Assembly (NCBI GenBank): GCA_963772455.1
Contig: CAVYXJ010000007.1
Location: 1 to 64,000, forward strand
Source: Candidatus Bathyarchaeota archaeon
GTDB taxonomy: Archaea > Thermoproteota > Bathyarchaeia > Bathyarchaeales > Bathycorpusculaceae
DNA length: 64,000 nucleotides
Direction: 5' to 3'
Shown here one piece after another: positions 2,988-59,603 of the stretch. Position 1 is the first letter of the stretch, and every line of letters begins with the position of its first letter. Below the pieces are notes generated by a model. The model had not been told where the DNA came from and did not search any database. It saw only the letters and a list, made by a program, of their open reading frames with translations. A program made the position numbers and the translations under genes.

Positions 2988-4461
2988 TCAAGTTCTTTCC
3001 CACCTCTGATCCTTTTCATGTCCACTCAGAGAGTTCAAACCGACAAATGCCATTTTGATATCGCCTACTGACTTCAAAGTAATCAATGATTTAGCCATGA
3101 AAACGGGGGCTTTGTGAATTTTCCAGATTTTTTCACACCAAATCATTGGGTCGTAGGAACATTTTAGCATTGGCTTCCCCATATCGTATTCATCATAGTT
3201 ATATGGATTAATTAGAAACCAATTGTTCTTTAAAGAAGCATAATACAATGGTGTTCCAGGATAAGTTACAATTACGCTTGATTGTAAACAATCCCCAAAT
3301 TTTGCTTTATAGAGCATAAGTTTTTTTGTTATATCATAGGTTCTTTGTACGTCCTTCTCACTTTCCCATGGAAAGCCGGTCATAGTTGTTAATTTCACCC
3401 GCAAACCATGATCCTTAGCATTTTTTACGCCGGCTACAATTTGTTCGATAGTTTCTTTTTTGCTTATTTGTTTTAATGTCTCGTTACTACCTGACTCCAA
3501 ACCAACCTTGAGGAGACGGAAGCCTGTTTTTTTTAGTATTTTACACGTTTCATCATTAAGATTATCAGCCCGAGAGTTGGAAGAAAGATTAACTTCGCCT
3601 ATTAGTCCTCTTTCATGCATTTCTTTGTGAAAATCACATAACCATTTTCGATTATAAATTCCGCCGCTTTCATTGTCATCGAATATTTCCTTGAAATGAT
3701 ATTTCTCAGTCATTTGGGCAATCTCTTCGGCAACATGTTTGGGAGAACGTAATCGTGCTTTCAGAGACCATAAGAGTATGCTGCCAAACACAAAACGCAC
3801 AATTACCAATTCCGCATGGTCCCCCTCCACATCCTCGACCGCTCATCAAATACCCAGAAGGATGGTGGAGGTAGGCTTCTTTGTAGTTAAGCCCAATAAT
3901 TTCCCAATCTATAAAAGGTAGTTTATCTAAATCCTCAATTAACTTTGGAGGCCCACTTTGGCGGATTTTTTCTTCTTCACGATACCATATTCCGCCGATC
4001 AACTCTGTTCCGTTAGTTACATGATTACAAATGCTACGCATAGCGAAGTCATAGTCGCCTGAAGCAACGACATAATCTGTTTGACTTTTCAACATTGACT
4101 CTTCAGGATTCCAAGTGACATGATCGCCGACTAGAACTATTTTTGTATCTAATTGCTTTTTTAGTTCTTCGATATATGCCCAATGCCTATAAATCATAGG
4201 TGTTTTGGTCTCGATCATCGCAATATCGGGCTTGAAACTAAAAAGTGCATTGTTATATTTTTCTAACTTAGTTCGACCAATGATGCCGTCGTGCCAGAAA
4301 ACTTCGTGACCATCTTCCTTTAGCATAGTTGCCGTGTAAGCTGGTACGATTGGAGGCGGAAAACTCTCCATAGTATTCGTAAATTTAAATTGTCTATTCT
4401 GTCCAATTGTAGGAAAACAACCGTCTTTAACTAAAGGCGGGTAGAGAATTGCAACACGCAT
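2988..4461 (-). CDS. B12-binding-domain radical SAM protein (split by one frameshift near 3780)
   Basis: ORF 3706..4461 has the B12-binding N-terminus (LVGDHVT) and GRGC...CAFC. ORF 2988..3830 has RSPKHVAEEI, VGLESGS, GFPWE and YPGTPLY. Confidence 0.85.
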
Positions 4462-4473
4462 ATTAGAGAACTC

Positions 4474-5538
4474 TCACTTTTCCCTAGTAGAATAATTTAA
4501 GGGTTTATAGATTTTGGGATTTAACTTAGCAAAATCAGACCACTTTGTATAACCATTGAGATAATGCAAAATGGGCGAAGGTTGCTTTACGCATAGTTCC
4601 ATTAATTCTTCATCTGATTTTTTTCTAATTTGTTGAACTTCTTTTCTATGAGACCAAATGAGTTTTGAATTGAATAAAAGCCATCCATAAGCCATAATGG
4701 GAGTTGAACCAAATTTTGCTATACTTATAATATCAAGTGCAAAACGTGCTGGTAAATACTTTATTATATTTGTTATTTCATAATTTTTAACCATCATGTA
4801 AATATTATTTTTGTATTTTCGGTACATGGTAATTTTATCTGTCTTGCCGCCGCCTTTATGCCATACTACAGATGATGGAACGCACATCAATCTATAGCCA
4901 TTTAGTCTAATTCTCCACGCTAAATCCAATTCTTCATGGTAAATAATAAAAGACTCATCAAAAAGTCCGATCCGTCTTAGAATATCACAGCGTGTTAAGA
5001 GAACTGAGCCGCCCACGAAAAATGTCTCACATGCCGTTTGATATTGCCCTTTATCTTTTTCCAAAGAATAGAAAATCCTTCCTCGATTAAGAGCATAGCC
5101 AAAAGCATCCATCCACATTCCTGCTGAACCATTATATTCAAATTCTGTTGGTTTCCAGAAGGACAATATTTTTGGTTGGAGTCCGCCAATATCTGGATTA
5201 GATTCCGCAACATCAATCAATTTATTGAGCCATTGAGGATCAAAGATTACATCACAATCGACAAACGCGACGTATTTGCTTACAGGATCAATCGCCCTAA
5301 AGCCTGAGTTCCAAGCCCCTCCAGAGCCGAGATTTTTCTTATTTTCGATAACCTTTATTTTGGGAAATTTCTTTCTGATGAAGGTTGTTGTACCATCTTC
5401 TGATGCATTGTCGCAGAATATGAGCTCGAAATTTGGGTAATCTGTTTTGTATAATGAACGTATTGACTCATCAGCAATTTTTCTTTTTTTGTAATGAGCC
5501 ATGATTATTGAGACTTTAACCATTTTTTTCAGTACCAT
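4474..5538 (-). CDS. Glycosyltransferase family 2
   Basis: DNASEDG, NLGSGGAWN, DCD (DxD), GLFDESF..YHEELDLAWR and VWH motifs. Confidence 0.92.
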   Translation of the reverse strand: MVLKKMVKVSIIMAHYKKRKIADESIRSLYKTDYPNFELIFCDNASEDGTTTFIRKKFPKIKVIENKKNLGSGGAWNSGFRAIDPVSKYVAFVDCDVIFDPQWLNKLIDVAESNPDIGGLQPKILSFWKPTEFEYNGSAGMWMDAFGYALNRGRIFYSLEKDKGQYQTACETFFVGGSVLLTRCDILRRIGLFDESFIIYHEELDLAWRIRLNGYRLMCVPSSVVWHKGGGKTDKITMYRKYKNNIYMMVKNYEITNIIKYLPARFALDIISIAKFGSTPIMAYGWLLFNSKLIWSHRKEVQQIRKKSDEELMELCVKQPSPILHYLNGYTKWSDFAKLNPKIYKPLNYSTREK

Positions 5539-51087: not shown

Positions 51088-54000
51088 TTATGCCTTCTCC
51101 TTAAGTCTTAATTTTGGTGTGATGCATAAGCTCTGAAGTTCTTGCAACAGAAGCTTAAAAGCGTAAGACACGATAACTGGTGAGATCTTGGCTTTCTCGT
51201 CGCATATCTTGCAGACATAGCGCCTTTGCTTCATGTCGAAGAAAGCGATTTGTCCGCAGTTCTCACAGATGTATAACGTGTATTTGTCCGATTCTTCCAA
51301 TAGCCTATCTCTTAGAAGCATGGCGGCTCCGTGTCCAATAAGGCAGTCTCGTTCCATTTCTCCGAATCTGAGACCACCACCTCTTGCGCGCCCTTCAGTT
51401 GGCTGGCGTGTGAGCATTTGGACTTGACCTCTAGCTCTGGCGTGGATTTTATCTGCAACCATGTGGTGTAGTTTTTGGTAGTAGACTATACCAACGAATA
51501 TATCTGCGATGAATTTTTCGCCTGTCGTGCCGTTGTAGAAAACTTCGCTTCCCGTTTGGCTAAATCCGAGTTTGACTAGATTTTTGCGAACTTCGTCGGG
51601 TCCTTCGTTTGAGAAAGGTGTACCATCTCCTGGTTTGCCTCTTGCGCATGCTGCTTTGCCTGAGAGTGATTCGATGAATTGTCCGATGGTCATTCTTGAG
51701 GGGATTGCGTGTGGATTGATTATTAAGTCTGGCACAATGCCGTCGTCTGTGAATGGTAGGTCTTCTTGCGCAACGATTAAGCCTATAACTCCTTTTTGTC
51801 CATGGCGTGAAGCAAATTTGTCGCCTAGTTCAGGAACTCTTTGATCTCTTACGCGGACTTTAACGAGTTGACTGCCTTCCCCTGACATTGTTACGAATAT
51901 TCCGTCAACTATGCCTGTTTCGGAGGGACGCATGTCTACTGATGTATCGCGCATTGAGGGTCCTTTAACTTCGAATTCTTTGTATTCTTCAAGGAATCTT
52001 GGAGGACTGATTCTTCCGATTAATACGTCTCCACCGACAACTTGAGATTCTAAACTGATTATTCCGTCAGGTTCTAAAAGACGGTAGTATTGTTCTCCTC
52101 TGTAACCTCTTGTGCCTGGTTCTGGAACAGTGAATTTGTCTTTTAAGCCTCCTAGGTATTGGCGGCATTCTGCTTCGTAGATTCGATAGAATGTTGATCT
52201 GGCTAAGCCGCGTTCTATGGATGCTTTGTTGAAGATGATGGCGTCTTCCATGTTGTAGCCTTCGAAGCTGAGCACTGCGACAACGCAGTTTTGTCCAGTG
52301 GGGCGTTGTTTGTATCCCATGACATCCATGTTTTCGGTTTGAACCATAGGAACTTGTGGGTAATGTAGTATGTGTGAGCGTGAATCTACGCGGTGGTGGA
52401 AGTTTGTTCCGTAAACGCCCAGGGCTTGTTTAGCCATTGCGGCTTGGTAAGAGTTTCTTGGTGACTGGTTATGTTCTGGATATGGGATAGTTGATGCGCA
52501 TATTCCAAGGATTGTGTATGTTGCAATTTCCACATGAGTGTTTTCTGGAGCTATTGCGTCGAAAGTTAAGGAGATGAAAGCGTTTTCTTCTTCTTCAGCA
52601 TCTAAATATTCAACTAAACCGTTTTTGATGACGTCTTCCCATGTCCATTCGCCCAGACCGATCTTTTCAAAATGTTTGGACCCGAGTTTTGAAACACCGT
52701 TTTCAACGATTATGAGAGGGCGTCTGACTCTGCCTTCGTCGCAGTTTGCATGGACTTCTTCTGTTTCAGTTTGGGCTTTAGAGAAGTAAGTTACGTTAAC
52801 TTCTGTTGAGATTTCGCCTGCTCTTCGTTTCTGGCGGAACGATTGCACCATGTCCTTTGGGTTATTACAATAACCAATAATGTTGCCGTCGACGAAAACT
52901 TTGGCACCTGAAATACGTAGCTCAATTGTGGCTTCTGATGCTGGTACTGTGCCCATTTCAAAGAGCAGCTGCTTTATTTTATCTGGATTTACGCCAACAG
53001 CGATGGAGGCTGATAATGCGAGGTTTTTAACAAGACCGCAGTTGGAGCCTTCAGGTGTTTCGTTAGGGCATAAGCGTCCCCAGTGGGTTGGGTGTAAGTC
53101 TCGGGCTTCGAAGTTGGGTTGGCTTCTGCTAAGTGGCGATTGGAGCCTGCGTAGGTGGCTTAGTGTTGAGATGTAATTTGTTCGGTCAAGGAGTTGTGTA
53201 ATGCCGACTCTGCCTCGTCCCCAGTTGCCAGTTGCTAATGCGTGTTGGAATCTTTCGGTGATTATACCTGGGCGCACGGCGGCTGAGACAGTAATGATTG
53301 GTCCTTTAACGCCGATGCGTTCAAGTTGGTATTTTATGTCTCTAGTTAAGTTTCTAAATGAGACACGGAAGAGGTCTGCTAACAATGGACCACCGAGTCT
53401 TAGTCGTTTATTCTTGAAGTGGTCTTTGTCGTCAGGTTGTCTTCTTCCTGTTTTTAGTTGGATTACGCGGTATGCCATTTCGCCAAGGAAAATGGCTTTT
53501 TCTTTGCGGTTTTTGTCGCTTCTTCCAAGGTGTGGAAGGAAGTTTTTGTCTAGCGCGGTTTCTGCTTTTTGAAGGCGGTATTCTTCGACTTGTCCGTGGG
53601 CAACGCGGTTGCCTATGAATAATATGGCGTCGGCTGGTGTGTCTACACCGATGGCTTTTTCGAATGATGCTGATAGTTGGCTTTGGGTGTCGCTGTCGAG
53701 GGAAACGGATTCTGCAATGTCTTTATCTTTTTCCAGGGTCAAGGCGCGCATGATAACGACGAAGGGAATTTCTGTTGGAACTCCTGGCATTGTTACGTAG
53801 ATTGCATCATCTGATTTTAGTTTAAGTTCGATTCTTGCTCGGAATCCGACTGTTGTTGAGAAGATTTTTGCTTGATAAACCGGCGATGTGCCTTTCTCAT
53901 CTATGTCAACAATAACGCGGTTTGGTGCCAAGTCCTCCATAGCAACTATGACACGTTCGCTGCCGTTCACAACAAAGTATCCGCCTGGATCATCTGGATC

Positions 54001-54453
54001 TTCTCCTGCTGCAATGAGTTCTTCTTTGCTGAGTTGACTAAGGAAGCAAAGTTTGCTCTTTAGCATAACAGGGATATTCCCAATGTAAACAAGCTCTGTG
54101 TCTTGTTCTCTACCGTCAACAACGGGAGTCATTTCGAGCGCAATTGGAGCCGAATAAGCTAAGTTGCGTAATCTGGCTTCCATTGGATAAATTTCATGTT
54201 TTGTTCCATCCACTTCAGTGGCATAGGGACCTGTAATTCTGGATTGAGGGTCAATTACCCATATTTGCCCAAGTTTAACTTTGTAGGGACTTTCTGGAAC
54301 TTCAATGGGGATTTCTGCTACTTCATCCACGACTTCTTGAAGTCCGTGGTCAATAAATTCATTATAACTATCAAGATGCTGGGTTACTAGTCCTTTCTCG
54401 TTGAAGAAAGTTTTCAAAAGATAATGGATATCTTCTTTTTGTGGATTAGTCAA
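51088..54453 (-). CDS. rpoB: RNA polymerase subunit B (unsplit Rpo2)
   Basis: GDKFASRHGQKG, RFGEMERD and C-terminal Zn finger. Confidence 0.97.
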   Translation of the reverse strand: MTNPQKEDIHYLLKTFFNEKGLVTQHLDSYNEFIDHGLQEVVDEVAEIPIEVPESPYKVKLGQIWVIDPQSRITGPYATEVDGTKHEIYPMEARLRNLAYSAPIALEMTPVVDGREQDTELVYIGNIPVMLKSKLCFLSQLSKEELIAAGEDPDDPGGYFVVNGSERVIVAMEDLAPNRVIVDIDEKGTSPVYQAKIFSTTVGFRARIELKLKSDDAIYVTMPGVPTEIPFVVIMRALTLEKDKDIAESVSLDSDTQSQLSASFEKAIGVDTPADAILFIGNRVAHGQVEEYRLQKAETALDKNFLPHLGRSDKNRKEKAIFLGEMAYRVIQLKTGRRQPDDKDHFKNKRLRLGGPLLADLFRVSFRNLTRDIKYQLERIGVKGPIITVSAAVRPGIITERFQHALATGNWGRGRVGITQLLDRTNYISTLSHLRRLQSPLSRSQPNFEARDLHPTHWGRLCPNETPEGSNCGLVKNLALSASIAVGVNPDKIKQLLFEMGTVPASEATIELRISGAKVFVDGNIIGYCNNPKDMVQSFRQKRRAGEISTEVNVTYFSKAQTETEEVHANCDEGRVRRPLIIVENGVSKLGSKHFEKIGLGEWTWEDVIKNGLVEYLDAEEEENAFISLTFDAIAPENTHVEIATYTILGICASTIPYPEHNQSPRNSYQAAMAKQALGVYGTNFHHRVDSRSHILHYPQVPMVQTENMDVMGYKQRPTGQNCVVAVLSFEGYNMEDAIIFNKASIERGLARSTFYRIYEAECRQYLGGLKDKFTVPEPGTRGYRGEQYYRLLEPDGIISLESQVVGGDVLIGRISPPRFLEEYKEFEVKGPSMRDTSVDMRPSETGIVDGIFVTMSGEGSQLVKVRVRDQRVPELGDKFASRHGQKGVIGLIVAQEDLPFTDDGIVPDLIINPHAIPSRMTIGQFIESLSGKAACARGKPGDGTPFSNEGPDEVRKNLVKLGFSQTGSEVFYNGTTGEKFIADIFVGIVYYQKLHHMVADKIHARARGQVQMLTRQPTEGRARGGGLRFGEMERDCLIGHGAAMLLRDRLLEESDKYTLYICENCGQIAFFDMKQRRYVCKICDEKAKISPVIVSYAFKLLLQELQSLCITPKLRLKEKA

Positions 54454-54758
54454 GTTTTCAGTTCTCCCATAAATTTAAGATATAATAATGATTGTGAGTT
54501 TTTGTTAAGCGTGTTTTCACTTTTTCATTTCCTCCGATGCTGGATTGATCCAACTCGAAAAAGGGTTCAGCTAACTTTTCTAAGAGCACAAACACAAGCC
54601 GCGATGCTCGCATATAAACTTTTTTGTACCTCTTGAGTCTAAACTGATTATTTGTTAAACAATAATAAAGCAGTAAAATAAAAAAACTTTACTATCTTCC
54701 GTTTGAATAAATTTTGGAAACTTTGGAACTATAGAGAATGCAGAGACAAAGATGAAAT

Positions 54759-55073
54759 CTAATATCTCGCGATTTTGTAACGAGTTCTACCCATTTGACG
54801 CTGCCGTTTCTCTTGAGCCTCGGTCAATTGAGTTTTACCCGTCTTGACCTCGTAAGTTGTGGGTTCACCAACTTTGTTTCCAAAAAAATCCCGTTTTTGA
54901 ACAACAAAATCTCCATCTTTACGAGTCTTTTGACAATCGTTTCCCATCATTGTTTGATCAAATGCAAAGCGGTCTTTTGCAAGGTTGCCTTTGGCGCGGT
55001 TGCTAGAAAGATTAAATCTTTTTGAAACATTTCCCAGATTTATCGGGTCGTCCTTTAAAGTTCTTTTTACCAT
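54759..55073 (-). CDS. Small PD-(D/E)xK nuclease-like protein
   Basis: GDFVV...YEVKTG..QLTEAQ resembles a VRR-NUC/Hjc-like catalytic pattern. Confidence 0.5.
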   Translation of the reverse strand: MVKRTLKDDPINLGNVSKRFNLSSNRAKGNLAKDRFAFDQTMMGNDCQKTRKDGDFVVQKRDFFGNKVGEPTTYEVKTGKTQLTEAQEKRQRQMGRTRYKIARY

Positions 55074-55133
55074 ACAGAACCTTAGTTTGAAAATACAACG
55101 AGATATTATTTCAACGTTTAGTAAAAAAAAACA

Positions 55134-56027
55134 TCAGTTATTCTTGCGTTTAATTATTTTGATAATTGCTTCTTTTGCGAGATTTTCGGTCTTTTCAGTA
55201 ATAACAGGAAGCAGGTTTAGGTCGGTTTCATATCCTATACTGTTCCTTTCGTTTTGAATTGCTATTTTTGTTGTTGTTCCTGAACCTAAGAATGGATCAA
55301 GTACAAGTTCGCGTTTCACGCTAAACATTCGGATTAGTCTGTGTGCGATTTCTTCAGGATAAGCAGCGGTTCTACGCTCTAAATCGTTTGTTGTCTGTCG
55401 CGTACCTTTGAGTGACCAGATTTGGCTGAACCATTCATCACGTTCTTTTTTGGTGAAAATGCTTTCATATCGTAAAGCATCTTTTGGTGGGAATTTTCGG
55501 AGTTTTCCCTTCCTAAATAACAAAATAAACTCGCAATCAATTGTAATATAAGCGTTTGGTGGAAGGAAACCTGAGCCCAAAAAAGCGCCTTTACCCTTGT
55601 ACATTGGCTTGTTAGTGGGTTTTTTCCAAAGGATATAGGGTAAAGTGGTGAAGCCGATTTTTTCGCACATCTCTGTGATTCGGGAGTGGTTGGGATAGAG
55701 CTGGAATTTGCCGTTTATAGTTCGGGTGGCGTCTCCAATGTTTATGCATGCAATGCCGCCGTCGACTAGGACCCGGTAGGTTTCAGCCCAAACCTTGGCT
55801 AAATAAGCATGCATTGCGGTATAGATTTGATGCACAACATCCTCCTCGCTGATTGCAGCCAATTCACCGAATAATTCTGCAATTCTTGGATCAGCGTTGC
55901 AAAATAGTTCGTCCCACATTGATATCATGGGGTAAGGCGGCGAAGTCACCATTAACTGGACACTTCTGTCCTCAAGTTCACTCATTCGCTGGCTGTTGCC
56001 AAAGATAATTGTATGCTGAGTCTGCAT
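55134..56027 (-). CDS. Site-specific DNA methyltransferase, N4-C/N6-A, beta class
   Basis: TSPPY (motif IV) at the N-terminus and VLDPFLGSGTT (motif I) at the C-terminus. Confidence 0.92.
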   Translation of the reverse strand: MQTQHTIIFGNSQRMSELEDRSVQLMVTSPPYPMISMWDELFCNADPRIAELFGELAAISEEDVVHQIYTAMHAYLAKVWAETYRVLVDGGIACINIGDATRTINGKFQLYPNHSRITEMCEKIGFTTLPYILWKKPTNKPMYKGKGAFLGSGFLPPNAYITIDCEFILLFRKGKLRKFPPKDALRYESIFTKKERDEWFSQIWSLKGTRQTTNDLERRTAAYPEEIAHRLIRMFSVKRELVLDPFLGSGTTTKIAIQNERNSIGYETDLNLLPVITEKTENLAKEAIIKIIKRKNN

Positions 56028-56143
56028 TGCTTCTATGTATCATCGATTGGTGCTTTTACTTTTGCGGTAATATGAATCCAAAGAGAATCCGTTATCACCT
56101 GTTTTCGAAGCAGTTTTTATAAGATAATTTAAATCCGTTACTA

Positions 56144-56815
56144 TTGATGAAAATACCTTATCAGCGAATAATTTACCATCTACCACTTAAAGAACTCAAC
56201 GAAGATGCCGCAATACTTTTAGGACTTCATGCTGGTGACGGATGGCTTTCAGATAAATGGGGAATAAGTTGTGGTCTAAATGATGAAGAAATGCTTGCAA
56301 AAATAATTGAACTTGTTAGAAACGTCTTAGGAGTTGAACCAAACACACCTGTTAATTGTCCTTCAGGTAAAGCTGTGATGATTAGGAGTGGTCAACCTCA
56401 GGCGTTAGAGTTCTTTCGAAATTATGGTTTCCCACAGGGGAGAAAAGCGGGAAAGGTTACTATCCCAAAACAAATCCTTGAATCGAGTGATGAAAGAATA
56501 CATAGAGCTTTTTTATGCGGCCTATTCAGTACAGATGGATGCTTTAGTTTTCAAATAAACCGGGGACCGAGAGTTGAAATCCAAGTTAAAAGCAAAGATC
56601 TCAGAGATGGGTTCACAAATTTAGCTGATAAATTAGAATTCAAATTCCGAACATATGAGTATATGCCACCTAACGGTAAAAATAAATCGCCTCTACACGT
56701 CGCATATACAACTCGGTCGCAACAGGTAATTCGTTGGATGGAGAAGATAGGGTCGATTAAAGATGCGCATAAAATAAGGTATAACAAGTGGAAAATGTTA
56801 AATGACCGAAGTTAA
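56144..56815 (+). CDS. Free-standing two-motif LAGLIDADG homing-endonuclease-family protein
   Basis: LLGLHAGDG and FLCGLFSTDG motifs about 100 aa apart. No intein or intron host flanks. TTTATAA box about 25 nt upstream. Confidence 0.85.
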   Translation: MMKIPYQRIIYHLPLKELNEDAAILLGLHAGDGWLSDKWGISCGLNDEEMLAKIIELVRNVLGVEPNTPVNCPSGKAVMIRSGQPQALEFFRNYGFPQGRKAGKVTIPKQILESSDERIHRAFLCGLFSTDGCFSFQINRGPRVEIQVKSKDLRDGFTNLADKLEFKFRTYEYMPPNGKNKSPLHVAYTTRSQQVIRWMEKIGSIKDAHKIRYNKWKMLNDRS

Positions 56816-56835
56816 TTGTTTTTAGCGGTTATTAT

Positions 56836-56986
56836 GCTACGGTAACCAAGCTAGGTCAAAGGTGAAAGAATACGCATTTTGCGTGTTCCACTAAGGACTC
56901 AAGATCTCGACGCTTTGACTCAAGCGCCCAAATGGGAAATCCTTTCCCTCAGGGGTTCGCAGGTTCAAATCCTGCCCGTAGCACCA
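56836..56986 (+). tRNA. tRNA-Leu(CAA) with two introns (56867-56894 at 28/29; 56904-56938 at 37/38) and encoded CCA
   Basis: Acceptor stem GCTACGG/CCGTAGC; D arm ACC...GGT; anticodon stem AAGGA/TCCTT with loop CTCAAGA after splicing; long variable arm; GGTTCAAATCC T arm; BHB-type junctions. Confidence 0.92.
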
Positions 56987-57046
56987 CAAAAAATTTGTAC
57001 TTTTAGAGAAAATTATATACTCCAAAACTTGTAGTATAAGTTTAAT

Positions 57047-57298
57047 TTGGTGACTTGGTTGGTCAGGATAGTTTTCACAGAAGATGAAAGGAGAAACCTC
57101 AAAGTCATAGCTTTGGAACTCTTGGAAATCCGCAAGCTCGTCGTAGAACTTACTGAAACATTGGTAAACGCAAACGACAAAAAACTAATGAAGATGCTTA
57201 ATGGAAGCCAAGATGATCTCAAAGAAAACAAAGTAGATACCTACAAAGAAACTTTGGAAAGACAAATAGACATAGCGGAAAAAGAATTTCGCTCATAG
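57047..57298 (+). CDS. Hypothetical helical protein
   Basis: 83-aa ORF just downstream of the tRNA. Confidence 0.55.
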   Translation: MVTWLVRIVFTEDERRNLKVIALELLEIRKLVVELTETLVNANDKKLMKMLNGSQDDLKENKVDTYKETLERQIDIAEKEFRS

Positions 57299-57490
57299 AC
57301 GATTCATGATCTTTTTTGATAATTCGCAAGCTCTAATCTTGCCCTCATCACGAACCAAATCCTTCGTTCTTATGGAAAGAGATAATACATAGCGTCAATG
57401 AGTATGTTAAGAATACAAATAAGCTGTTTCTCTAGTTGTCAAAACTACGTTTTACGCTTAATTGCAATCTAAAAAATAGGAGAATACACT

Positions 57491-57688
57491 ATGCAGAAAA
57501 TGATCGCATCGATGACTTTAACTTGCCCTCAATGCAACAAGAAATTCGAGTTCGACGCAGTGGGAGAGAACGAGTTCGTTCCTTGCCCTATATGCGGAAC
57601 CAACTTCTTTATAGCTAAAAAAGGCAATAAGTTAATCCTTGAAAGCTTCGAGCAAACCCTGTCTGAAGAATTAGCAATTCTGGTTTAA
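57491..57688 (+). CDS. Small zinc-ribbon protein (LysW-like fold, no EDWGE tail)
   Basis: CPQC...CPICG; AGGAG SD upstream. Confidence 0.7.
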   Translation: MQKMIASMTLTCPQCNKKFEFDAVGENEFVPCPICGTNFFIAKKGNKLILESFEQTLSEELAILV

Positions 57689-57818
57689 CCAAGATAGCCA
57701 GCTCGGACTAATTTTTTTTTCGATTTTTTTACTTTAACTGACATATTCTTATACGCGGAGCTCTTCAAAACAAAATCCAAATAACCATGCCAACATTATC
57801 CAGTAAGAGGTAGATGCC

Positions 57819-59603
57819 TTGACGGCTAATAATAATGTAACATGGGACTTAACGGAACTTTTCCCAAGCATAACTGACCCCAAAATTGACCAAGCCATTG
57901 CAGAGGTCACAGTAACGGCAAACGAGTTTGAGAAGACTTACCGTTGTAAAATAGCTAGCTTATCATCAGAGGGTCTACTTATGTGCTTACGCGATCTTGA
58001 GGCGTTTGAATTAAAAATTAGCGATTTAACCCTTTATTCTAGCCTTTCATTTGCGATGGACATGACTCAACCCCAGGCGCAGGCATTAAACGACAAGATA
58101 GACAAACTCTCAGCAAACATCAGCAAACAACTCGCGTTTTATTCGCTAGAACTGGGCACATTGGTTAAAACCAACCCTCAAATAATCAAAGAACCAACCC
58201 TTTTCAATTATAGACATACTCTTGAGCGCGTCCAACGCAGAGTAGAACACCAACTCTCTGAAGTGGAAGAACAACTTATCATCGAGAAGGATCAATTTGG
58301 CGTTTATGCTTGGGAGGAATTGCAGAGCAAATGGCTTAACACTCGCCTTTTTGAAGTTGTGGTTTTAGGAGAGAAAAAAACTCTGAGCTACGGAGAAGCT
58401 AACGGTTTGTTACCGCATCATGACCGAGCAACACGGGAATCAGCTAACCGCTCAATCTATGGGTTGCTGGGTAAGGATGGCGAATTGTTCTCGGCAGCAC
58501 TGCGTAATATCTGCAACGATTGGGTAAGTGTGTCTAAACGCAGAAAATATGCTTCACCCATGGAATCTAGTTTTATTAGCAACGACACTGAGAAAGGAAT
58601 CATTGGCAATTTGCTTAAAACCGTCGAAGCAGGCGTAGTAAGTTATCGGCGCTACCTTAAGCTTAAAGCAAAACTCATGAGCTTGCCAGTTTTAGGCAAC
58701 CACGATATCATGGCTTCACTTCCCAAGATGCCAGAATTCAAATTCACGTTCCAACAAGCAGAAGATCTCATTTCCAAAGCCTATGGTCGATTTGATCCCC
58801 AATACGCTGCAGCGGTCAAAGAAATGTTCCAAAAGCACCGTATAGACGCCCAACCAAGATTCGGCAAACGAAACGGCGCCTTCTGTGCAGGCTTCTATAA
58901 AGGCAAATCGGCTTACATCTTGCAAAGTTTCAACGGTACGCTCACAGACGTTTTCACATTAGCTCATGAACTTGGGCACGCCACTCACGACTGGTATGCC
59001 TCGAGAAATCAAACAATGCTCAACATGCACGTTCCGTCCATTGTAGCAGAGACGGCTTCAATTTTTGGTGAGTTGTTACTAACTGATCTGCTTTTGGATG
59101 AAGCAAAATCTGATGAAGAACGCAAAGCACTGCTATGTCTTGTTTTGGATGAGGCAGGTATGACAACGTTCCAAGTTACTGCAAGAGTTTGGTTTGAACA
59201 AGCACTCTACGAGTCCATTGAACGGGGCGAATTCTTGGATTACAAAACCATTTGTAGCCACTGGACTAATAGCCGAGACCGCGTTTTCGGCGATGCAGTC
59301 ACATGGTTCCCAGAAATGCAGGCTGAGTGGACAATGAAACCCCACTACTTCATGGCTAACTACCGATTCTACAATTACCCCTATGTCTACGCCCAAATGT
59401 TCGTTTATTCACTTTATGAGCGGTATTTAGATGAAGGCAAAGCTTTCGTTCCCAAGTTGGTGAAAGTGTTGTCTGCAGGTGGAAGCATGTCCCCAAAAGA
59501 AATCGGTGAAGTCGTCGGCTTGAACGTTGCCGATCCAAACTTCTGGATGGATGGCTTAAAAGTGTTCGATCGCTTAATATGTGACCTCGAAAAAATCATC
59601 TAA
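57819..59603 (+). CDS. pepF: Oligoendopeptidase F (M3B)
   Basis: WDL N-terminus, GKRNGAFC, TLAHELGHATH, AETAS and HYF..FYNYPY motifs. Confidence 0.93.
   Translation: MTANNNVTWDLTELFPSITDPKIDQAIAEVTVTANEFEKTYRCKIASLSSEGLLMCLRDLEAFELKISDLTLYSSLSFAMDMTQPQAQALNDKIDKLSANISKQLAFYSLELGTLVKTNPQIIKEPTLFNYRHTLERVQRRVEHQLSEVEEQLIIEKDQFGVYAWEELQSKWLNTRLFEVVVLGEKKTLSYGEANGLLPHHDRATRESANRSIYGLLGKDGELFSAALRNICNDWVSVSKRRKYASPMESSFISNDTEKGIIGNLLKTVEAGVVSYRRYLKLKAKLMSLPVLGNHDIMASLPKMPEFKFTFQQAEDLISKAYGRFDPQYAAAVKEMFQKHRIDAQPRFGKRNGAFCAGFYKGKSAYILQSFNGTLTDVFTLAHELGHATHDWYASRNQTMLNMHVPSIVAETASIFGELLLTDLLLDEAKSDEERKALLCLVLDEAGMTTFQVTARVWFEQALYESIERGEFLDYKTICSHWTNSRDRVFGDAVTWFPEMQAEWTMKPHYFMANYRFYNYPYVYAQMFVYSLYERYLDEGKAFVPKLVKVLSAGGSMSPKEIGEVVGLNVADPNFWMDGLKVFDRLICDLEKII

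Follow-up and report, generated by a model that had tools for sequence, protein, structure and literature searches.

Our analysis concerns a free-standing LAGLIDADG homing endonuclease gene and the doubly interrupted tRNA-Leu(CAA) gene that follows it in a stretch of 64,000 nucleotides (nt) from a Candidatus Bathyarchaeota archaeon (contig CAVYXJ010000007.1, positions 1 to 64,000; hereafter the window). Comparison with related loci leads us to favor, as the probable explanation, that tRNA-Leu DNA is cut by the encoded enzyme where it is uninterrupted and that the enzyme's gene is always accompanied by a tRNA allele resistant to it, much like a natural cleave-and-rescue element. For the gain and upkeep of short non-canonical introns in archaeal tRNA genes, this locus offers a mechanism in which the target of the endonuclease would be the tRNA gene itself and the intron would be the immunity determinant, carried along during repair.

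The endonuclease gene and its two motifs are located as follows.
56147..56815, forward strand: free-standing, single-chain LAGLIDADG homing endonuclease gene, 222 amino acids (aa) from the ATG at 56147, with an alternative TTG start at 56144
56216..56242, forward strand: LAGLIDADG motif 1, LLGLHAGDG, with the codon of the catalytic-position Asp at 56237-56239
56510..56539, forward strand: LAGLIDADG motif 2, FLCGLFSTDG, with the codon of the catalytic-position Asp at 56534-56536

The open reading frame (ORF) at 56144..56815 of the forward strand has TTG as its first codon. The ATG at 56147 is the likelier start, and the 222-aa product read from it is identical to a database protein (P0001). The product matched Pfam LAGLIDADG_3 (PF14528) with an E value of 6.9e-12, better than the curated cut-off. 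When 26 relatives sharing 43-79% identity with the window protein were aligned, the motif 1 Asp was kept in 26 of 26 and the catalytic position of motif 2 was acidic in 26 of 26 (25 Asp and one Glu). An AlphaFold model of the enzyme (predicted local distance difference test score, pLDDT, 91.1; predicted template modelling score, pTM, 0.89) predicts two tandem alpha-beta-beta-alpha-beta-beta-alpha domains that would form a DNA-binding saddle. Foldseek matched this model to the VMA intein endonuclease 7qsu (E 3.6e-12) and to PI-SceI, and gave template modelling scores, normalised to the target, of 0.72 for I-Tsp061I and 0.71-0.73 for I-DmoI; the non-catalytic relatives WhiA and bI3 maturase were also among the fold matches. 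A profile search of the PDB returned archaeal VMA intein endonuclease domains (E 1.6e-13), an archaeal intron enzyme, PI-SceI and I-AniI. The genome of origin (G000) has one copy of the gene. In some relatives (P0081, P0103, P0111 and P0113; alignment columns 1-80) the N terminus is longer by about 40-75 residues and includes a common helix-turn-helix-like motif, and the window endonuclease does not carry this extension.

The gene is free-standing, because in relatives without it the start of the methylase gene and the tRNA are only about 93-97 bp apart, and because an Rfam scan of the 64-kb window reported no family at threshold, group I introns included. A group I intron reading was ruled out on the latter result. 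The 39 group I introns reported in archaea all lie in rRNA genes (PMC6125680). The analysis confirmed an intact, free-standing, two-motif LAGLIDADG gene with its own start, its own stop and a putative promoter. The first-pass annotation, made from the letters of the window, had described a two-motif LAGLIDADG ORF outside any intein or intron with Asp in both motifs, and Pfam, the alignment, the fold and the locus comparison all agree with that description. I-DmoI, I-Tsp061I and the VMA intein endonucleases share the fold and the motif pattern of the window enzyme. Their genes lie within rRNA introns or inteins, where splicing restores the host gene, whereas the window gene lies outside any intron or intein and host function would be kept by a linked resistant tRNA allele.

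The tRNA gene starts after a spacer of 20 nt between the endonuclease stop codon (56813-56815) and its first base (56836), and is composed of the following parts.
56836..56986, forward strand: tRNA-Leu(CAA) gene, from comparison with 30 genus loci
56836..56866, forward strand: exon 1, with the acceptor, the D arm, position 26 and the first two anticodon-stem bases
56867..56894, forward strand: intron 1, non-canonical, 28 nt, from its presence/absence polymorphism in otherwise identical genes
56895..56903, forward strand: exon 2, with the remaining 5' strand of the anticodon stem and the loop to position 37, including the anticodon CAA
56904..56938, forward strand: intron 2, at the canonical 37/38 position, 35 nt
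56939..56986, forward strand: exon 3, with the 3' strand of the anticodon stem, the long variable arm, the T arm, the acceptor and the encoded CCA

The gene was defined by comparison because neither ARAGORN nor Rfam reported any tRNA in the 64-kb window, a practical warning that tRNA finders miss such genes. Against the 30 genus loci, the window tRNA appears as two insertions within an otherwise identical gene. Removal of both introns yields a cloverleaf with a long variable arm and the anticodon CAA, and ARAGORN, given the joined exons without the 28-nt and 35-nt introns, called a tRNA-Leu(CAA) of 88 nt including the CCA. The acceptor stem covaries among species. A doubly intron-interrupted tRNA at this distance downstream had been proposed in the first pass, and both the 30-locus comparison and the ARAGORN call on the joined exons bear it out. 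Intron 2 is present in all 30 genus loci read, whether or not the endonuclease gene is present; with intron 1 removed, ARAGORN places a 35-nt intron at the canonical site, though it misnames the anticodon.

Intron 1 sits in the 5' strand of the anticodon stem. Because a repeated AA at both junctions leaves its boundaries ambiguous (they can be shifted left by up to 2 nt), we place it between positions 26/27 and 28/29. Folded to a consensus, 11 intron sequences give an 8-bp hairpin joined through a 3-nt bulge to a 4-bp helix and, across a 3x3 loop, to an outer helix of 4 bp; in four pairs of the hairpin, compensatory changes on both sides keep the pairing. This arrangement has the 3-nt bulge and the 4-bp helix, with a 3x3 internal loop in place of a second bulge; intron 1 thus resembles a relaxed bulge-helix-bulge form whose splicing is predicted.

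The window tRNA is the sole tRNA-Leu(CAA) found in a 2.45-Mb, 92%-complete genome, so a cut in this gene would be costly. Genome G026, another carrier of the endonuclease gene, likewise has a single matching tRNA-Leu(CAA) copy, which is intron-bearing. A search of the window for a remnant tRNA-Leu piece found nothing beyond chance 10-12-mers. In RNA data from nine runs only 5-7% of sampled words were present, and among runs X2, X3, X7 and X8 only two contigs, both from X7, matched the locus (56893-56986 and 56934-56986). The upstream letters of one of these contigs fit the allele without intron 1 and its downstream letters are unlike the window; because its flanks differ, this contig comes from another organism and is uninformative on splicing or expression in the window. 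Elsewhere in G000, a pair of tRNA-Leu(TAA) genes that hardly differ (G000:C10:435039-435158 and G000:C17:4038-4158) both have an intron of about 30 nt in the D loop, and a tRNA-Leu(CAG)-like gene (C5:12224-12333) has an intron as well. All three are missed by ARAGORN, which reports only 45 tRNAs genome-wide.

Members of the endonuclease family were found in four of 120 genus genomes, G000 counted (G000, G026, G075 and G126). The genes of G000 and G026 are intact and 78% identical, and those of G075 and G126 are pseudogenes with frameshifts or stops; two more weak matches in the genus (28-33% identity) are other LAGLIDADG genes. The gene has the same place in all four carriers, between the methylase gene and the tRNA. 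Intron 1 was typed with a pattern across the intron site, which matched 106 of the 120 genomes; the uninterrupted 22-bp sequence was present in 80 of these, and the remaining 26 had an insert of 26-29 nt. With intron-less and intron-bearing alleles of an otherwise identical 22-bp site and four independent occurrences of the endonuclease gene, the genus comes near to a natural experiment. All four endonuclease-bearing genomes carry intron 1, compared with 26 of 106 typed genomes overall, and the chance of four out of four falling on intron alleles is C(26,4)/C(106,4) = 0.003 with relatedness ignored.

Both characters were then placed on a DNA tree of rpoB, a gene some 2.4 kb away from the tRNA whose synteny is kept in most genus genomes. 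The tree covers 86 genomes with full-length rpoB and a typed tRNA, with the intron-bearing G090 and G131 excluded. On it, unrooted, intron 1 requires 16 state changes, 14 of them forced by branches with Shimodaira-Hasegawa-like approximate likelihood ratio test (SH-aLRT) support of at least 95, and all 24 intron-bearing rows fall in one clade of 54 rows. A first tree of 30 rows gave eight changes against a shuffled-label mean of 8.0, that is, no extra clustering of the intron. The endonuclease gene occupies four separate tips. At three of them the sister has neither the gene nor the intron (G000/G138, G075/G079 and G126/G010; SH-aLRT 95-100); the sister of the fourth, G026, is G003, which has the intron without the endonuclease gene. 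A class-wide sample gave matches at an E value of 1e-20 or better in five of 401 genomes, all of one family and two of the five with internal stops. The endonuclease gene is patchy and decaying, and intron 1 turns over rapidly and co-occurs with it.

Other irregularities were seen at these genus loci. Many endonuclease-less genomes contain extra 3' pieces of tRNA-Leu(CAA) at 0.5-1.8 kb from the complete gene (for example G065:C1:972317-972365, G076:C1:1330551-1330602 and G064:C6:271473-271543), and in G031:C22 five partial copies are clustered between 16645 and 22616. Such pieces look like scars of past cassette insertions or of integrated elements. In seven genomes (G067, G128, G130, G131, G118, G134 and G140) rpoB was matched in pieces with internal stops or shifted frames, which may reflect assembly errors or inserted elements such as inteins.

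Outside the genus, a word-indexed protein search returned 125 relatives, named at their source as LAGLIDADG or intein endonucleases of Bathyarchaeia, one of them from Nitrososphaerales. To the five loci from genome contigs we added the best 80 of 155 confirmed metagenome matches, and the resulting 85 loci contain 86 near-full-length endonuclease copies. A complete tRNA on the same strand lies 2-114 nt downstream of 60 copies (46 Leu(CAA), 13 Leu(TAA) and one doubtful, in L125), and for 12 copies a divergent tRNA-Leu(CAA) lies 104-135 nt upstream. Three copies run off the contig with their 3' end missing, which leaves 83 evaluable. The 11 copies that the script left unassigned all have, when read by eye, an abutting, overlapping or interrupted tRNA-Leu. 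The ORF overlaps or abuts the tRNA in L051, L052, L084 and L111; the tRNA has a variant T loop in L101; the contig ends inside it in L112; a second cassette interrupts it in L071, L073 and L082; and L098 and L123 are short contigs of the divergent class. A tRNA-Leu gene or piece consequently adjoins 83 of the 83 evaluable copies. The tie of homologues to tRNA genes, which the first pass had named as a check, is thus without exception among them. The second part of that check, a correlation with non-canonical introns, comes out for the genus (four of four); in other lineages protection seems to come from another stem sequence or from replacement of the whole tRNA, and not always from an intron.

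Two loci deserve separate description. The doubtful case is a tRNA-like gene of 126 nt (L125:2461-2586), 73 nt downstream of a homologue of 43% identity and not recognisably a tRNA-Leu. In G044, from another family of the order, an intron-less tRNA-Leu(CAA) (1763-1848) has, about 130 bp away and on the other strand, a 40-residue N-terminal endonuclease fragment of 58% identity (L003:1507-1629).

That the gene invariably adjoins a tRNA, and that WhiA and bI3 maturase are among its fold matches, could also be expected of a domesticated LAGLIDADG protein acting as a maturase-like splicing helper for the odd intron or as a WhiA-like regulator of the tRNA gene. The first-pass annotation had offered such a DNA-binding or RNA-maturation factor as its alternative. 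We regard domestication as very improbable. The gene is present in only four of the 26 intron-bearing genus genomes (and of the 120 genomes as a whole), two of the four are pseudogenes, and the catalytic acidic residues are kept across the family. WhiA, to our knowledge, lacks such residues.

More than simple adjacency is found in at least 13 loci, in which the endonuclease gene and its own complete tRNA, often accompanied by small genes, lie between the 5' and 3' pieces of a different tRNA-Leu(CAA).
L006, L007, L047, L049, L050, L053, L056, L057, L058, L060, L061, L062 and L068: cassette loci, with the two tRNA pieces 1.7-4.4 kb apart

The two pieces are halves of one former gene, since their 7-nt acceptor strands are complementary. 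Break points and acceptor pairing were read by eye. The ends of the 5' pieces fall in the D loop (3), at position 26 (2-3), 28 (1), 29 (about 11), 30 (about 6), 31 (about 6) or 33 (about 6), and the 3' pieces start mostly at positions 29-31. The site of intron 1 in the window falls in this same break zone (positions 26-33). In two cassettes of the class with 58-70% identity to the window enzyme, a small MazE/AbrB-type gene was observed just upstream of the endonuclease gene, and the other cargo varies (genes for a ribbon-helix-helix protein and an M48 peptidase, and ORFs of unknown function, 108-320 aa long); the places noted for these genes and cargo are L050:1244-1423 and 3924-4865, and L053:2630-2800.

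The variable cargo would also suit cassettes moved by other machinery, such as an integrase or recombinase acting at tRNA attachment sites, with the LAGLIDADG gene a passenger or remnant. tRNA genes are known targets of archaeal integrative elements, and a study of Caldiarchaeum subterraneum describes a 1.8-kb recombinase element beside a tRNA-Thr fragment, proposed to have split the gene and left a copy with more introns (PMC3293823). We nevertheless consider this account improbable here. The LAGLIDADG gene and the tRNA are all that is common to all cassettes; the ORFs of the two cassettes scanned with Pfam, L050 and L053, include no recombinase family; the resident tRNA is split and not duplicated as an attachment-site repeat; and the inserted DNA in the window is the endonuclease gene alone. 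The Caldiarchaeum locus does resemble the Bathyarchaeia loci, since in both a piece of a tRNA gene, inserted DNA and another, more intron-rich tRNA copy lie together. A related proposal by Randau and Soll, as cited in PMC4090602, holds that introns shield tRNA genes from integrating elements, and our explanation of the window shares with it the protection of a tRNA gene from mobile DNA. PMC4090602 terms the mechanism of tRNA intron transposition unknown. The differences are that the Caldiarchaeum element encodes a recombinase and that the threat considered there is viral or plasmid integration, whereas here the shared gene is a homing endonuclease and the threat would be cleavage.

The family divides into classes that are paired reciprocally with two types of tRNA. 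In the class of 58-70% identity (37 copies), the linked tRNA has an anticodon stem different from that of the interrupted genes, and also a D-loop intron of 16-28 nt. In the class of 41-46% identity, the divergently linked tRNAs are of the very type that the 58-70% class interrupts (six intron-less, five with two introns and one with a window-like intron 1). Conversely, 13 of the 14 copies of the 41-46% class abut the broken 5' part of a tRNA of the 58-70% class, and in these 13 copies the break is always just past the first anticodon-stem bases. After such an invasion the gene of the 58-70% class is truncated in L082 and L098, and in L071 and L073 it has Asp at an otherwise invariant Gly. The introns of the same-strand linked tRNAs all lie within about positions 20-42, roughly the length that a LAGLIDADG site would cover if its centre were near position 30. 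On a distant metagenome contig of 861 kb, a tRNA-Leu(CAA) was observed whose intron agrees with intron 1 of the window in type and in site (L082:4518-4632); it is linked to the divergent endonuclease class.

The mechanism that we propose accounts for these arrangements as follows. The ORF would encode an active or recently active selfish LAGLIDADG homing endonuclease, with the tRNA-Leu(CAA) gene in its uninterrupted form as predicted target, around the anticodon-stem 5' strand (about positions 26-33). Its gene would survive only if linked to a tRNA-Leu allele that resists cutting. In the genus of the window the shield would be the resident tRNA gene itself, split at the predicted cut site by the 28-nt intron of putative bulge-helix-bulge type. 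When element DNA meets a sensitive genome, the only tRNA-Leu(CAA) gene would be broken, and repair from the element-bearing copy would import about 0.8 kb that includes both the endonuclease gene and the intron. Later the endonuclease gene would decay or be lost, and the intron would stay as immunity. In other Bathyarchaeia, where flanking homology is missing, the endonuclease gene and a resistant tRNA would insert in the broken resident gene and replace its function, and the shield may be a different anticodon-stem sequence, other introns or replacement of the whole tRNA. Cleavage, its exact site, protection by the intron and the direction of transfer are the parts of this scheme that we infer from comparison. 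More tentatively, and with somewhat less than even confidence, we suggest that Bathyarchaeia harbor cleave-and-rescue elements whose rival endonucleases target each other's rescue tRNA, and that these drive the gain, spread and upkeep of tRNA introns and stem variants.

Several observations weigh against the proposed mechanism. Twenty-two of the 26 intron-bearing genomes have no endonuclease gene, and the case of G003, an intron carrier without the gene, shows that the intron can persist and perhaps spread by itself. The rpoB tree is a local and not a species tree, because rpoB is so near the tRNA, and being unrooted it cannot tell intron gains from losses. A paired test of the four endonuclease tips gave three concordant pairs, none opposite and one uninformative (sign test p 0.25, the best attainable with four pairs). 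The canonical intron is found in every genus allele, sensitive or not. Beyond the genus, the linked tRNAs of L054, L057, L059 and L066 have the canonical intron only, six tRNAs of the divergent class are intron-less, and L073 has a seemingly full-length ORF of the 58-70% class at 0.9 kb from an intron-less tRNA of its predicted target type. Finally, the tRNA pieces do not mark one site; their break points are spread between the D loop and position 33, and some may be later decay.

Some of these points would suit an endonuclease with a homing site in the spacer, or at the promoter-proximal edge, of tRNA-Leu genes, the 28-nt intron then being an unrelated polymorphism on the invaded alleles. The genus insertion is indeed upstream of the tRNA and not inside it, most intron carriers lack the gene, and the association rests on four lineages. 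Homing to the edge leaves unexplained the cassettes that break tRNA-Leu genes at positions 26-33, the reciprocal pairing of endonuclease classes and anticodon-stem types, and the finding of four out of four occurrences on an intron allele of 25% frequency with three well-supported sisters lacking both. We judge it unlikely, if the least so of the alternatives. The cut-and-resist scheme remains the one that we prefer. The first-pass proposal that the enzyme cuts the intron-less allele and that the intron immunises is partly sustained: co-occurrence and the cassette sites fit it, the many carriers without the gene count against it, and the paired test is underpowered.

Known systems resemble the proposed one in part. 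T4 SegB is a free-standing GIY-YIG homing endonuclease encoded, like the window gene, among tRNA genes; it is reported to cut tRNA genes, recognising a conserved tRNA-gene sequence, and to spread itself and neighbouring tRNA genes to relatives without them (PMC2330249). SegB differs from the window enzyme in its GIY-YIG family, its phage-borne gene, its T-arm motif and the lack of an intron or resistant replacement allele. The window gene, for its part, has a cellular archaeal host and a single-copy target. According to PMC6083498 and PMC2790892, F-CphI with the cyanophage psbA intron and T4 mobE with I-TevIII are free-standing endonucleases that act in trans on intron insertion sites. As in the window, the endonuclease gene is outside an ORF-less intron; in the window the intron would likewise interrupt the proposed target, and the two would be inherited jointly. 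The phage introns belong to group I, splice themselves and interrupt protein genes, whereas the window has a 28-nt, presumably protein-spliced archaeal tRNA intron, and cleavage is experimental for F-CphI and mobE and predicted for the window. ClvR, a synthetic Cleave and Rescue gene drive (PMC6442612), resembles the proposed element in that a nuclease destroys an essential gene and is tightly linked to an uncleavable version of it. ClvR is engineered (Cas9 plus a recoded gene) and works in sexual eukaryotes, whereas the window would hold a putative natural prokaryotic counterpart. In a literature search outside of which lay subscription journals and supplements, no publication came up that describes LAGLIDADG genes next to tRNA genes in archaea.

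The DNA that flanks the endonuclease gene includes the following features.
55134..56027, reverse strand: N6/N4 DNA methylase gene (Pfam N6_N4_Mtase, E 5e-38)
56070..56892, forward strand: stretch of 823 bp with the endonuclease gene, tRNA exon 1 and intron 1, against 82 bp in G138
56086..56094, forward strand: direct repeat AATCCGTTA, copy 1
56118..56125, forward strand: TATA-like box TTTATAAG, 22 nt before the ATG, with an inferred promoter role
56132..56140, forward strand: direct repeat AATCCGTTA, copy 2
56790..56806, forward strand: A/T-rich stretch in the last codons of the endonuclease gene (KWKMLND), 30-46 nt before the tRNA

In 18 of 30 genus loci the layout is a methylase gene (at least 67% identity), about 95 bp and the tRNA-Leu(CAA), and 15 of these 18 have no endonuclease gene; the endonuclease homologues of other lineages (L005-L008) have no methylase neighbour. 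The methylase is a resident neighbour and the left homology flank, outside the mobile unit. Because the two genes are head to head and 116-119 bp apart, a LAGLIDADG-type restriction-modification pair could be imagined, with the endonuclease as the restriction partner of the divergent methylase. We rejected this as scarcely credible, because the methylase occurs without the endonuclease and the endonuclease without the methylase, and the two genes do not co-occur as a pair should. In a BLASTN comparison of the window with G138, the closest relative of the window genome on the rpoB tree, the flanks 53897-56069 and 56893-59603 align at 84-85% identity. Two ORFs 3' of the tRNA, one of 83 aa with no Pfam match (57047-57298) and one for a 65-aa zinc-ribbon protein (57491-57688), belong to the resident genome, because they lie in the part (56893-59603) that aligns to G138 at 84%.

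The first pass had also assigned to the endonuclease gene its own TATA box flanked by AATCCGTTA direct repeats. Of this claim the box was retained: a TTTATAA core with a preceding TTTGAA-like motif is kept in all four endonuclease-bearing loci. Its position only 22 nt before the ATG suggests that the putative promoter would give a leaderless or short-leader mRNA. The 9-bp repeats are real, with the copies at 56086 and 56132 the only ones in the window, and are not conserved in the other three endonuclease-bearing loci (G026, G075 and G126), so they were ruled out as element ends or a target-site duplication; in shuffles, at least two copies appeared somewhere in 64 kb in 11 of 100. The four endonuclease-bearing loci share the A/T-rich stretch at 56790-56806 almost unchanged, including those in which the gene has otherwise decayed. 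Its distance to the tRNA, compared by eye, is that of a TATA-like box in endonuclease-less loci (MAFFT favoured another pairing), and it may be a candidate promoter of the tRNA's own.

What is new here is the link between endonuclease and intron within a genus, the rapid turnover of the intron, the coincidence of the intron site with the cassette site, and the reciprocal pairing of endonuclease classes with tRNA types. If the proposed mechanism is true, these loci would provide a natural prokaryotic example of a cleave-and-rescue drive and a source of new LAGLIDADG specificities aimed at tRNA genes. On the more tentative reading, with rival elements, homing endonucleases would be what drives the gain and turnover of introns in archaeal tRNA genes, a driver long sought.

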